Shown here: positions 32,560 to 38,573 of the stretch, in pieces
Position numbering within the stretch: the first letter of the stretch is position 1
Layout of the letters: every line of letters begins with the position of its first letter
Assembly (NCBI RefSeq): GCF_056712565.1
Contig: NZ_CM160072.1
Reading direction: 5' to 3' (one strand)
DNA length: 64,000 bases
Made by a program: the position numbers and the translations under genes
The notes under the pieces: generated by a model
What the model was told of the DNA's origin: nothing
The model's input: the letters and a program-made list of their open reading frames with translations, nothing else
Database searches by the model: none

Positions 32560-32970
32560 ATGAAGTGGCAACAACGTGTTCGTGTCGCAACTGGCCTAAG
32601 TTGCTGGCAGATTATGTTGCATTTACTGGTAGTGGCGCTGCTGGTGGTGGGCTGGATGAGTAAAACTCTGGTTCACGTCGGCGTAGGATTATGCGCACTG
32701 TATTGTGTCACGGTAGTGATGATGCTGGTGTTTCAGCGCCACCCCGAGCAACGCTGGCGTGAGGTGGCAGACGTGCTGGAAGAGCTGACCACGACCTGGT
32801 ATTTTGGCGCAGCGCTGATTGTTCTGTGGCTGTTGTCCCGCGTACTGGAAAACAACTTTGTGCTGGCGATTGCAGGGCTGGCAATCCTTGCCGGCCCGGC
32901 GGTAGTGTCTTTGCTGGCGAAAGATAAGAAGTTACATCACCTTACGTCTAAACATCGCGTACGCCGCTGA
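32560..32970 (+). CDS. ybhQ: Inner membrane protein
   Basis: 136-aa hydrophobic ORF divergent from ybhP. Confidence 0.85.
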
Positions 32971-34038
32971 CCCTGTCGTGGCCGTTATCACCAGTAGCGG
33001 CCACAAACTATTCCACACAATATCCAGACTCGCATCCTTCAAATAAATCTGCTTGGTAATGTCCGTAAAGTGGCGAATAGGGTTAATCCACGTCAGATTT
33101 TGCAGCCACACTGGCATGTTTTCCACCGGCGAAACGTAACCGGAAAGGAGAATGGCGGGCATCATAAAGACAAACACGCCGATAAACGCCTGCTGTTGTG
33201 TTGAACAGAGTGATGAAATCAACAGACCGAATCCCACCAGCGATAAACCGTAAATCACCATCGTGAAGTAGAACAGCGCCAGCGATCCGGCGAAGGGGAT
33301 TTGATACGCCCAGATACCAATCGCCAGCACAATGGTGGCCTGGAAGGTGGCGACAATTAATGCCGGTACGGCTTTGCCGATGAATATCTGCCAGGTGGTG
33401 AGGGGCGAAACCAGCAACTGATCGAGCGTACCTTGTTCACGTTCACGGGCGACGGAAAGTGAAGTGACTATCATTACGCCGATAGTGGTGATCATGGCGA
33501 TCAGCGACGGCACCACAAACCATTTGTAGTCGAGATTCGGGTTATACCAGTTGCGTACCACCAGCTCGCTGTTGTTGGGTTTCGGTTTTCCTTCCAGCAG
33601 CTCCTGCTGATAATTTTTGACGATCTGTTGCAGGTAGTTGGCGGCAATTTGCGCACTGTTGGAGTTACGCCCGTCGAGGATCAACTGCAACGGCGCGGTC
33701 TGGAAGGTATCCAGTTTGCGCGAGAAGTCAGCCGGGAAACGCACCAGTAGTAACGCCTTTTGTGTGTCGATGGTCGGGCGGATCTCCTGCGGGCTTTTCA
33801 GCAGCAGCACATGGGTAAAGGCGCTGGCGCGGGCAAAACGTTGAGTAAGTTCTACCGAGTGCTCGCCGTTATCTTCATCGTAGATGGCGATGGTGGCGTT
33901 GGTCACTTCCAGCGTGGCGGCGAACGGGAACAGGATCACCTGAATTAGCACGGGTAAAATCAGAATTGCGCGGGTTTGCGGTTCGCGCAGCAGCGACTGC
34001 AACTCTTTGCGGATTAACGTCCATAAGCGATGAAACAT
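32932..34038 (-). CDS. ybhR: ABC-2 type exporter permease
   Basis: 368-aa polytopic ORF. Confidence 0.9.
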
Positions 34039-34048
34039 GCTCTTCTCC

Positions 34049-35182: not shown

Positions 35183-36911
35183 TGCTATGCTCCTTATCCC
35201 AGTCGTGGATCAACTGAATAAAGGCTTGCTCCATAGTGGGATCGGGTTGTTCATCGTTGGCCGACTGCGCTTTCAAATCGTCCGGTGTGCCGCTGGCGAT
35301 TAATTTCCCGCGGTACACCAAGCCGATGCGGTCGCAATATTCCGCTTCATCCATAAAGTGGGTGGTGACCATCACCGTGACGCCTTTCTCTACCATACTG
35401 TTGATATGTAGCCAAAATTCACGGCGGGTGAGGGGATCAACGCCGGACGTCGGTTCGTCGAGAAACAGAATGTCCGGTTCATGCATCAGCGAACAGGCCA
35501 GCGCCAGCCGCTGTTTAAAACCTAATGGCAGTTCATCGGTCGCGTGGGAGGCGATACTTTTCAGGCCGAACGCCTCGCTCATACGGGAGATTTTTTCGTT
35601 CTGCGCCCGACCGCGTAAGCCATACACACCAGAGAAAAAGCGTAAATTCTGTTCGACCGTCAGGTTGCCGTAGAGCGAAAATTTTTGCGCCATATAGCCG
35701 AGATGCTGGCGCGCTTTACCGGAACTCTCTTTCAGATCCATGCCCAGCACCAGGGCCTGACCAGAGGTCGGTACCAGCAAACCGCACATCATCTTAAAGG
35801 TGGTCGATTTACCCGCGCCGTTTGGTCCGAGCAAACCAAAAATCTCCCCGCGTTTAACGGCAAAGTTGACGTGATCGGTGGCGGCAAAATCACCAAATTT
35901 CTTGGTTAGTTCCTTCGCTTCGATCACCGTCTCGCCGGGTGTGCCTTCTACCGTATGTAATATTGCGCCCAGCGGCGATTCCGAGGTTCCGGCACCGCCC
36001 AGCAAATCAATAAACGCATCTTCAAAACGCGGCGTAGTTTCGTTGATGTCGATTTCCGGCATCCCGTCGGCATGGCGAATATCGTCTGGCGTGGTCTCTT
36101 TTTTGAGGATCAGACGTACCGATTTCCCCTGAATCATGCCGTCGCTGACCTGCGGCAGTTTCAATGCCCGTTGCAACAGTTTGCGGTTGCCCTCGTGCGG
36201 GCTGGTCATCAGAAAGCTGCGTCCGGCCATAGTTTGAGTCAGGGCCGTCGGTTCTCCCTGATACAGCAGCTCGCCTTCGTTCATCAGTAACACGTCACGG
36301 CACTGCTCGGCTTCGTCGAGATACGAGGTACTCCAGAGGATTAACATCCCTTCGCCCGCCAGCTCATGCACCATCTGCCACAGTTCGCGCCGTGAGATAG
36401 GGTCAACGCCGACGCCGGGTTCATCGAGCAGCAACACTTTCGGTTCGCCTACCAGGGTACAGGCCAGGCCGAGTTTTTGTTTCATCCCACCGGAGAGCTT
36501 GCCCGCCAGGCGTCCGGTAAACGGGCCAAGAGATGTAAACTCCAGCAGGCGAGCAAAAGTCTGCTTCCGTGCCTCGCCGGTGACGCTGCGCAAATCCGCG
36601 TACAGATTGAGATTTTCCATCACCGTCAGATCTTCATACAGGCCGAATTTCTGCGGCATATAGCCGAGCACGGCGTGCAGCGCAGCGTCGTTTTTGATCG
36701 GATCAAAGCCAATCACCGTGGCACTGCCGCTGTCGGGTTTCAGTAATCCCGCCAGCATCCGCATCAGCGTGGTTTTGCCCGCACCGTCCGGCCCAACCAG
36801 CCCCGTCACATAACCGGCGTGAATGGTGCAGTCGAGCGGTGCGACGGCGGGCTTGTCCATGCCCGGAAAGCGTTTTTCCAGGCCGTTCAGCGTGATAACG
36901 GCATCATTCAT
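35175..36911 (-). CDS. ybhF: ABC exporter ATPase with two fused ATP-binding domains
   Basis: ORF 35175..36926; start placed at [10 protein letters not shown] (578 aa); two Walker A motifs ([18 protein letters not shown]). Confidence 0.9.
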
Positions 36912-37902
36912 GTCCTGCCTCGTCACCGAATTGCACCGTTACCGGCATTCCCTGGCGTAACGCATCATCGGCGTCGGTCACCACAATACGCAGGCGATAG
37001 ACGAGGTCGGTACGCAGATCCGGTGTTTCGACGGTTTTCGGGGTAAATTCAGCAGTCGGCGAAACGAAACCAATCTGCCCGTGATACGGTTTGTTCGGAC
37101 GACCATCGGTATAAAGCAGCACTTTGCGCCCCGGCTGGGCCTGGTCAAGATTACGTTCATCAACATAGGCGCGTACCCACACCGGACGCGTCAGCGAGAC
37201 GGTAAATACCGTGCCACCTTCATTAAGCACCGTGCCGGGCTCTACCGCGCGCGTTAACAGCGTGCCATCAGACGGTGCTATCAACGTTGAGTCCTGCAAA
37301 TTCAGCTCCGCCTGCGCCAGTTGCGCCTGCGCTTGTTCGAGGCTGGCTTTCGCCTGGGCGATGTCCTGTTCGCGGTTACCGGAACGGTACTGACGCAATT
37401 TATCCTGCGCTGATTTCAGCGTGGCCTGCGCCTGGTCGCGCGAGGAGCGGGCATTTTCCAGGTCATTTGCCGAAATGGTGCGGCTTTTCCACAGTCCTTG
37501 CTGGCGGTTATAGAAGTTCTGCGCATAGTCATAGGCAGCTTGCGCCTGTTTCACCGCTGCGGCGGCCTGAGCGATTTCTTCATCGCGATACCCGGCAAGC
37601 ATCAGGTCATACTGCGCCTGAGCCACCGAAACGCCCGCTTTCGCCTGCATCAGGGCAATCTCATACGGCTTGTGATCCAGTTCGCCCAGCACCTGGCCCG
37701 CTTTGATCGCATCACCTTCGTCCACCGCCAGCGACTCAACGCGCCCCCCAACACGGAAACTAAGATTCACCGTACGAATATCCACGTTGCCATACAGCGT
37801 CAGGCCGTTATCCTGGCGGCTTTGATACCACCAGTAGCCTCCGGCAACCACGGCGGCAAGTACTACTACCGCCAGTCCGATCACGACAGGTTTTTTCATC
37901 AC
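36904..37902 (-). CDS. ybhG: HlyD-family membrane fusion (periplasmic adaptor) protein
   Basis: 332-aa ORF, N-terminal anchor and coiled-coil region. Confidence 0.9.
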
Positions 37903-38573
37903 TACAAACTCCTTTGCGATAATCCTTGCAAAATCAGGTCAATATGACAGGTCACCGTCTGGTTGATCAGTTCGGTCTTTTCTTCATCGAACGCGGTCCA
38001 GCCGGTACGTAACAGAATAGTTTCTTTGCCAAGACGAAACGCCAGAATCTCACCAATCAACGCATGGGTATGAAGGATCATGCGGGTATCGCTAGCGTCG
38101 CAGCCGGTCCAGGCGGCAATCAGGCGTGTAAGGTGACTGTGTAGCGGACTAATCACCTGTTCGTGCACCAGGTGGTAGGCTGCCGTGGGAGAGAGCTGCT
38201 CACGGGAGATAAATTTGCTGAGGTTGACGGTGTCATCCTGGGTGAGCAGCTTAATCATGTTTCTGCAGGCGCGAAGGATCAGTTCACGGATGGCTGCCCG
38301 ATCCGGCTGTGGTTGTGCGAACAAACGTTCGGCTTCTTCGGCGTGTGGACGGAACTGCTCGCCAATAAAATCAGCAATCCACTGGGCGCAGGCGAGGTAC
38401 AAATCTTCTTTCGAACCGAAGTAGTAGGTGATGGCTGCGATATTCTGCCCGGCCTGGGCGGCTATCTCGCGGGTGGTGGCGTTCATTCCATATTCACCAA
38501 ACTGTGCCAGTGCCGCAGCAATCAGCTGTTTTTTCGCCTGTTCACCCTTGATTGTCATGGCAGGATTATTCAT
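37902..38573 (-). CDS. cecR: TetR-family transcriptional regulator
   Basis: ORF 37902..38585; start placed at [12 protein letters not shown] (223 aa); N-terminal TetR HTH; first gene of cecR(ybiH)-ybhGFSR operon. Confidence 0.88.

Follow-up and report, generated by a model that had tools for sequence, protein, structure and literature searches.

The cecR-ybhGFSR locus of Escherichia coli: a CecR-controlled ABC-2 exporter with two putatively unequal ATP sites

The cecR-ybhGFSR Locus

The window analysed here is a stretch of 64,000 nucleotides (nt) of contig NZ_CM160072.1 (NCBI RefSeq assembly GCF_056712565.1), in which five minus-strand genes at positions 32932-38573, cecR-ybhGFSR, encode a TetR-family regulator and the components of an ATP-binding cassette (ABC) exporter. 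These positions are part of an Escherichia coli chromosome, as they are 100% identical to ATCC 11775 and other strains, and at least 80% of their length is found in 5423 of 5426 complete E. coli genomes. There is little doubt that the locus is the chromosomal E. coli cecR-ybhGFSR operon, coding for a repressed ABC-2 pump that would work as set out below. The operon, its control by CecR, the drug phenotypes, the link to TolC and the crystal structure of CecR are all published and already known.

The first gene of the operon, cecR (ybiH; 37902-38573), encodes a TetR-family repressor of 223 amino acids (aa). It is followed on the minus strand by ybhG (36904-37902), encoding a HlyD-type periplasmic adaptor of 332 aa when read from the GTG start used in K-12, by ybhF (35175-36911), encoding a soluble ATPase of 578 aa with two fused ABC domains, and by ybhS (34049-35182) and ybhR (32932-34038), encoding two ABC-2 permeases of 377 and 368 aa, respectively. 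In the PGAP version, ybhG starts one codon later than in K-12, at the ATG at 37899 (36904-37899, 331 aa). For ybhF, an alternative in-frame GTG lies five codons upstream (36924-36926), the annotated start being the one that matches K-12.

This gene order, between ybhQ and rhlE, is found with the same lengths and the same neighbours in ATCC 11775 and in K-12, where the genes are b0796-b0792 and the strand relations are also those seen here. Annotation of identical E. coli DNA gives cecR, hlyD/ybhG, ybhF, ybhS and ybhR. An earlier reading of this DNA (the original prediction) had proposed a TetR gene followed on the same strand by genes for an HlyD-like adaptor, a double ATPase and two ABC-2 permeases, had named the set cecR-ybhGFSR and had described all five genes as intact. 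Domain searches bear out the gene content, the Pfam and NCBIfam matches that assign the five products all scoring higher than their curated cut-offs, the coordinates are exact on the minus strand, and the name agrees with both annotation and literature.

The integrity of the genes is equally well borne out. None of the five open reading frames contains an internal stop, and all have the lengths known from K-12 MG1655. At 96.3-97.6% nucleotide identity to K-12 for the individual genes, a divergence of about 3.5% that is mostly synonymous, the proteins differ by only one residue in CecR, two in YbhG, four in YbhF and two in YbhS, and YbhR has no amino acid difference at all despite 27 nucleotide differences in its gene. 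With a ratio of nonsynonymous to synonymous change (pN/pS) of 0.018 over the five genes, they are thus intact and subject to strong purifying selection.

The Double ATPase YbhF and Its Two ATP Sites

YbhF is matched by Pfam ABC_tran in two stretches (206 bits), with a first nucleotide-binding domain (NBD1) at about aa 1-235 and a second one (NBD2) at about aa 326-578. It also matches the DrrA subfamily TIGR01188 with 450 bits (cut-off 312), and the best PDB matches of its NBDs are ABCA7, ABCA4, ABCA3 and ABCA1. The published description of the system likewise attributes two NBDs to YbhF, with YbhS and YbhR as the membrane subunits (PMC7190983).

A motif scan and an alignment of the two halves show that both NBDs depart from the consensus, each at a different motif. 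In NBD1, the H-loop codons T195-S196-Y197 (36321-36329, minus strand) place a serine at the canonical histidine position, and in NBD2 the signature codons L461-P-L-G-F465 (35517-35531, minus strand) form a degenerate version of LSGGQ. The signature of NBD1 (LSGGM, aa 139-143) and the H-loop histidine of NBD2 (His518) are canonical. In a head-to-tail dimer of NBDs, each ATP site takes its H-loop from one domain and its signature from the partner domain. The composite site with the H-loop of NBD1 therefore also contains the signature of NBD2, and the non-consensus residues are clustered there as in a degenerate site, so that one site of YbhF is deviant and the other consensus, and the two composite sites are unequal.

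This layout is deeply conserved. The homologue search with YbhF returned, among the 120 matches listed, only Enterobacteriaceae at 88% identity or more, and deep conservation was read from a protein library clustered at 50%. Of the 123 representatives (37-67% identity) in which all four motif positions could be aligned, 112 keep the asymmetry of the YbhF type, and the H-loop position of NBD1 is occupied by a residue other than histidine in 121 of these 123 diverged relatives. The NBD1 signature reads LSGGM in 132 of 150 relatives, and that of NBD2 is mostly of the LPxG type. The Walker B catalytic glutamate has not been lost from NBD1, which retains D163-E164, the same DE pair being present in 141 of 150 relatives; as this glutamate and the Walker A lysine are both retained in the deviant site, the degeneracy is partial.

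The same asymmetry is displayed by RbbA, the ATPase of the paralogous E. coli system YhiI-RbbA-YhhJ, with TAY as the H-loop of NBD1 and LPLGI as the signature of NBD2. Judging from these motifs, the consensus site, built from the Walker A, Walker B and H-loop of NBD2 together with the LSGGM of NBD1, probably carries out hydrolysis, and the deviant site probably serves mainly to bind ATP.

ABC exporters in which one of two unequal ATP sites is degenerate illustrate a general principle (PMC7756269). TM287/288, PatAB, TAP and the fungal pleiotropic drug resistance (PDR)/ABCG transporters resemble YbhFSR in having non-identical NBDs and membrane halves, with deviations of H-loop and signature located in one composite site. 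The degeneracy of YbhF is milder than theirs, since its glutamate and lysine are kept; YbhF further differs in belonging to an ABC-2 fold system with an adaptor. On a tentative view, which we rate slightly below an even chance, the YbhF/RbbA family would combine one catalytic and one regulatory ATP site, and YbhGFSR would be an adaptor-linked ABC-2 counterpart of the eukaryotic PDR/ABCG pumps. No paper stating the asymmetry of the YbhF/RbbA ATP sites was found in the searchable literature.

Permeases, Adaptor and Fold Class

Both permeases carry the ABC-2 membrane domain. YbhS matches Pfam ABC2_membrane_3 with 135 bits, along with ABC2_membrane and ABC2_membrane_2, and YbhR, which is 27% identical to YbhS, matches ABC2_membrane_3 with 175 bits, ABC2_membrane families scoring above their gathering scores in both proteins. 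The hydropathy profile of YbhS displays a first transmembrane (TM) segment at about aa 29-47, a non-hydrophobic loop of about 130 aa and a C-terminal TM bundle, a layout shared by YbhR. The nearest solved chains of the permeases are ABCG23-like, a chain named 'transport permease protein' (8tsh) and ABCG1, the nearest one of YbhR being of ABCG type (8z01, E 9.4e-14). With the ABC-2 membrane domain in both permeases and a DrrA/ABCA-like NBD in YbhF, the features of ABC-2 (type V) transporters are found together, and YbhS and YbhR are, by these domain and structure matches, ABC-2 (ABCG-like) permeases.

Two papers place the system elsewhere. A review of 2021 files YbhFSR in its section on MacB/FtsX and gives ybhF as the gene of the adaptor (PMC8277102), and the functional paper of 2020 gives LolCDE as the most similar E. 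coli transporter (PMC7190983). Membership of the MacB/FtsX class (type VII) was considered and rejected, as YbhS and YbhR have no Pfam match to FtsX or MacB_PCD at E <= 0.001 and no chain of MacB, LolC or LolE occurs among their PDB matches even at E <= 1. A placement in the MacB family, or closest to LolCDE, conflicts with the ABC-2 domain and the PDB matches and is not supported by the sequence comparisons.

The adaptor YbhG matches Pfam HlyD_D23, HlyD_3 and Biotin_lipoyl_2, as well as the NCBIfam equivalog PRK03598 (602.5 bits, cut-off 393). It has a single N-terminal hydrophobic segment (aa 6-24), and its nearest solved structures are the adaptors EmrA, MacA and MexA. As in tripartite pumps, the adaptor gene is linked to those of the transporter, ybhG overlapping ybhF by 8 nt. 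The likeness to MacAB-TolC thus lies in the combination of an ABC transporter with an HlyD/MacA-type adaptor, YbhG matching MacA structures, and probably with TolC. However, MacB is a homodimer in which the NBD and the transmembrane domain are fused, whereas YbhFSR consists of one chain with two NBDs and of two different ABC-2 permeases.

Paralogue and Distant Relatives

YhiI-RbbA-YhhJ, the E. coli paralogue, has the layout of YbhGFSR, with an adaptor followed by two NBDs and then by a pair of ABC-2 permease domains. YbhF is 40-42% identical to the NBDs of RbbA, YbhS 32% to its permease domain, YbhR 24% to YhhJ and YbhG 29% to YhiI. Unlike YbhF, RbbA (911 aa) is a fusion of the ATPase with the first permease, and no TetR gene adjoins the paralogous genes. 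An assignment of YbhF as RbbA itself (equivalog NF033858) was rejected, since YbhF, which is devoid of a membrane domain, scores 516.8 bits, far below the cut-off of 1050.

The module made of an adaptor, a double ATPase and two permeases is also kept in two distant relatives, at 45% and 41% identity. In these, the genes for adaptor and ATPase, and those for ATPase and first permease, overlap by 4-11 nt, and the two permease genes abut or are separated by a 9-nt gap. In the 45% relative (loci L005, 3854-9967, and L006, 974-7087), a gene for a TolC-like outer membrane efflux protein (OEP) abuts the adaptor, ATPase and permease genes directly upstream, and a divergent XRE-type helix-turn-helix (HTH) gene stands in place of the TetR gene. 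A TetR gene is absent from the loci of both relatives; as the module is kept in both, the pump module is old and its linkage to a TetR gene lineage-specific.

In the 41% relative (L007, 1-9950), a YbhGFSR-like module and an RbbA-like one, the latter with a 364-aa adaptor and a 913-aa fused ATPase-permease, adjoin on opposite strands. Given the part-for-part paralogy of the two systems in E. coli, this adjacency could be the trace of a duplication.

CecR and the Divergent Control Region

CecR matches Pfam TetR_N (53.3 bits) and CecR_C (121.1 bits) above the curated cut-offs, the NCBIfam equivalog CecR with 417.7 bits (cut-off 365) and, over its full length, the crystal structure 9i1x of CecR (E 1.7e-147). 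Its domains and the match to 9i1x correspond to the N-terminal HTH and the all-helical ligand domain of the TetR family. The protein is a homodimer (PMC12998191).

The divergent genes cecR and rhlE are separated by a spacer of 228 bp (38574-38801, both strands). Upstream of the cecR ATG, at a distance of 13 nt, this spacer contains a palindrome, TCTTAATCAA-N4-TTGATTAAGA (38586-38609), with 10-nt arms that are 100% complementary. Even with 3 mismatches allowed, no second copy is present in the window. The palindrome has 0 matches in 100 shuffles, so that chance would not account for it, and it is identical in K-12. This perfect 10-4-10 palindrome is probably the CecR operator. CecR is known to bind the cecR-rhlE spacer, repressing cecR-ybhGFSR and activating rhlE (Yamanaka 2016, as summarised in PMC12998191). 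Binding to the spacer and repression are also given in PMC5934670, in which CecR is described as a single-target regulator, and ChIP-exo of YbiH is in agreement, with an AT-rich inverted-repeat motif (PMC6237786). The palindrome fits both this motif and the binding in the spacer, and may be equated with the CecR box on these grounds. An alternative in-frame ATG for cecR (38583-38585), four codons upstream of the annotated start that matches K-12, is recorded as lying inside the palindrome.

A -10-like hexamer, CATAAT (38609-38614, minus strand), can be read next to the palindrome, its last base being the first base of the latter, and TGGACA is seen by eye 15 nt upstream of it (15-nt spacer). 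The abutment of the palindrome on this putative -10 element suggests repression by occlusion of RNA polymerase. On the rhlE side, an inverted repeat at 38764-38801 that would pair with the rhlE Shine-Dalgarno sequence was dropped, as it folds no better than shuffles (z -0.07).

The spacer is far better conserved than its surroundings, with 227 of 228 positions identical to K-12 between flanking genes that are about 3.5% different. Across E. coli, identity of at least 99% is reached by the spacer in 4946 of 5423 genomes and by the operon in 342 of 5423. A near-invariant patch of about 415 bp (38515-38929), made up of the spacer flanked by 59 nt from the start of cecR and 128 nt from the start of rhlE, contains a single difference from K-12, about 13 being expected at the local rate. 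Taken together, these figures point to a constraint on the divergent control region. A second bin devoid of K-12 differences, of 200 bp (32266-32465), coincides with the divergent ybhP/ybhQ control region.

In its overall design, this control resembles that of the local repressors in the pairs TetR-tetA and AcrR-acrAB, which also combine an N-terminal HTH with a ligand domain, act at a palindromic operator located at the promoter (a probable one in the case of CecR) and respond to ligands related to the pump. It differs in that cecR is not divergent from the pump genes but the first gene of their operon, which makes it strictly autoregulated, and in that CecR is reported to activate rhlE too.

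One Transcription Unit

The original prediction had described start and stop codons overlapping throughout, as the sign of one translationally coupled operon, and had proposed that internal promoters or terminators would speak against it. Overlaps were found at two of the four junctions, ybhG/ybhF (ATGAATGA) and ybhF/ybhS (ATGAGTAA), each of 8 nt. The ybhS/ybhR junction is instead a 10-nt gap holding a GGGAG Shine-Dalgarno sequence, and the cecR/ybhG junction depends on the start chosen, with a 2-nt gap for the PGAP ATG or a 1-nt overlap (TAGTG) for the K-12 GTG. The tight gene packing is real. Translational coupling is a reading of this packing, which may hold although each of the four downstream genes has its own Shine-Dalgarno sequence, that of cecR being poor. 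The single unit itself fares better, as it agrees with the literature, in which cecR-ybhGFSR is treated as one CecR-repressed operon (PMC12998191, PMC5934670), and with the lack of convincing internal promoters and terminators on the minus strand. In addition, ybhF and ybhG are induced together by chlorophene, a phenolic biocide (PMC7357472).

It is conceivable that the five genes do not form one unit and that internal promoters or terminators separate the expression of the regulator and adaptor genes from that of the transporter genes, which would suit the ribosome-binding sites of the downstream genes, the ybhS/ybhR junction without overlap and the unlike phenotypes of the knockouts, with chloramphenicol for ybhG and cefoperazone for ybhF (PMC12998191). 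Terminator-like patterns are also commoner than in shuffles (15 versus 7.0 +/- 2.9). Those on the operon strand, however, sit in T-rich codons of membrane helices, and the candidates at 35089-35065, 36031-36015 and 35865-35846 were discarded, as they fold no better than shuffles (z -1.8, -0.07 and -0.10, respectively). On the minus strand, nothing resembling a promoter was found by the promoter scan within the operon, and no Rfam element was found in 32400-39000. With gaps of at most 10 nt, two 8-nt overlaps, a tight layout that recurs in the relatives at 41-45% identity and a literature that knows one operon, separate units are improbable, and a single transcription unit remains the preferred reading.

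Downstream of ybhR, no convincing intrinsic terminator was found, the hairpin at about 32870-32900 having a z of -0.99 and no T-run. The 3' ends of ybhR (minus strand) and ybhQ (plus strand) overlap convergently by 39 nt (32932-32970). Without a convincing ybhR terminator, antisense read-through of ybhQ towards ybhP-clsB-ybhN is conceivable.

Neighbouring Sequence

The original prediction had set the intact operon against nearby lesions, a description that holds for one annotated pseudogene, a 5'-truncated ybiA (40396-40593), no other being annotated within 20 kb on either side. Compared with K-12, in which ybiA, encoding a NADAR N-glycosidase, has 483 bp, the rhlE-dinG spacer (40164-40699) lacks about 297 bp. 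As the full-length K-12 version of this spacer occurs in 3429 of 5426 E. coli genomes, the truncation of ybiA is a common polymorphism and not a private lesion. Next to it, rhlE (38802-40163) has 1362 nt (453 aa) in place of the 1365 nt (454 aa) of K-12, due to a one-codon indel, and its 3' part is the most divergent from K-12, reaching 16 differences per 200 nt between 39666 and 40065.

Mechanism, Substrates and Physiological Role

In the proposed mechanism, a promoter located between cecR and rhlE would drive leftward transcription of cecR-ybhGFSR on the minus strand. A CecR homodimer would bind the 10-4-10 palindrome that abuts the -10-like hexamer, a putative site inside a spacer for which binding and repression are published, and would there block RNA polymerase, so repressing its own gene and the four pump genes until a ligand entering its tunnel-like cavity caused its release. 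YbhF, with both NBDs on one chain, would sit on a YbhS/YbhR heterodimer of ABC-2 (ABCG-like) fold and, with no H-loop histidine in NBD1 and a degenerate signature in NBD2, would power it from two unequal composite sites. YbhG probably bridges the periplasm to TolC. Indeed, thermal proteome profiling and affinity purification have shown that YbhG loses stability when tolC is knocked out and that TolC is recovered together with it (PMC6056769), and the relative at 45% identity has its TolC-like OEP gene next to the adaptor gene. The E. coli operon itself contains no OEP gene.

The substrates published for YbhFSR comprise tetracyclines, ethidium and Hoechst 33342, to which cephalosporins or chloramphenicol may have to be added. 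When ybhF or ybhR is knocked out, the minimum inhibitory concentrations (MICs) of tetracyclines, ethidium and Hoechst are lower, efflux is vanadate-sensitive, and differences in the efflux of tetracycline and ethidium were measured directly (PMC7190983).

Several points weigh against the picture of a repressed, ATP-driven drug pump with one site that mainly binds ATP. NBD1 of the deviant site keeps its catalytic glutamate and Walker A lysine and may still hydrolyse ATP; the PDB copy searched holds no structure of YbhG, YbhF, YbhS or YbhR; and a sigma-70 scan of the spacer gave no promoter directed towards cecR, CATAAT staying below the threshold. Cefoperazone reportedly affected growth in the 2016 work of Yamanaka, in contrast to its MIC in the ybhF knockout. 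The latter was unchanged, the tetracycline MIC shifted only 2-fold and a ybhS knockout brought no change (PMC7190983). Finally, the affinities of CecR are weak for proposed inducers, with dissociation constants (Kd) of 79 uM for cefepime, 6 mM for cefoxitin and more than 50 mM for chloramphenicol.

Small and partly contradictory drug phenotypes combined with such affinities mean that the natural substrate or inducer may not be antibiotics. The pump would then export a hydrophobic or lipid-like compound of endogenous or environmental origin, the drug phenotypes being side effects, an alternative that we take seriously while leaning against it. Many exporters of ABC-2 fold move hydrophobic or lipid-like compounds, and the nearest solved relatives, ABCA and ABCG, are lipid or sterol movers. 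The operon belongs to the E. coli core and is under a strong purifying selection for which clinical antibiotics would hardly account, chlorophene induces it (PMC7357472), and the tunnel-like cavity of CecR held polyethylene glycol (PEG) chains (PMC12998191). However, the measured efflux of tetracycline and ethidium has to be accounted for, and multidrug pumps and their TetR sensors are normally weak and broad in specificity.

A further proposal, which sees in YbhFSR mainly a Na+(Li+)/H+ antiporter and not an exporter driven by ATP, derives from the salt and alkaline tolerance conferred on KNabc by overexpression of YbhF alone and from an efflux of tetracycline that is inhibited more by carbonyl cyanide m-chlorophenylhydrazone (CCCP) than by vanadate (PMC7190983). 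It is highly improbable, since YbhF is soluble, has no membrane segment and could not form an ion path when overexpressed alone, and since its ATP-binding motifs are all conserved; the claim is also flagged for further investigation in a review (PMC8277102). An ATP-driven ABC-2 exporter under CecR repression thus remains the preferred reading of the locus.

The cecR-ybhGFSR operon stands as a minor, little-characterised ABC efflux system of Enterobacteria with some practical relevance. The assignment of its permeases to ABC-2 and not to MacB and the layout of one good and one odd ATP site in YbhF are refinements and not discoveries, and would be useful pointers for mutagenesis or cryogenic electron microscopy (cryo-EM) of the pump. 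If the asymmetric-site reading is true, then, taken with the weak drug data, the real job of the pump may be the export of a non-antibiotic, possibly lipid-like substrate.

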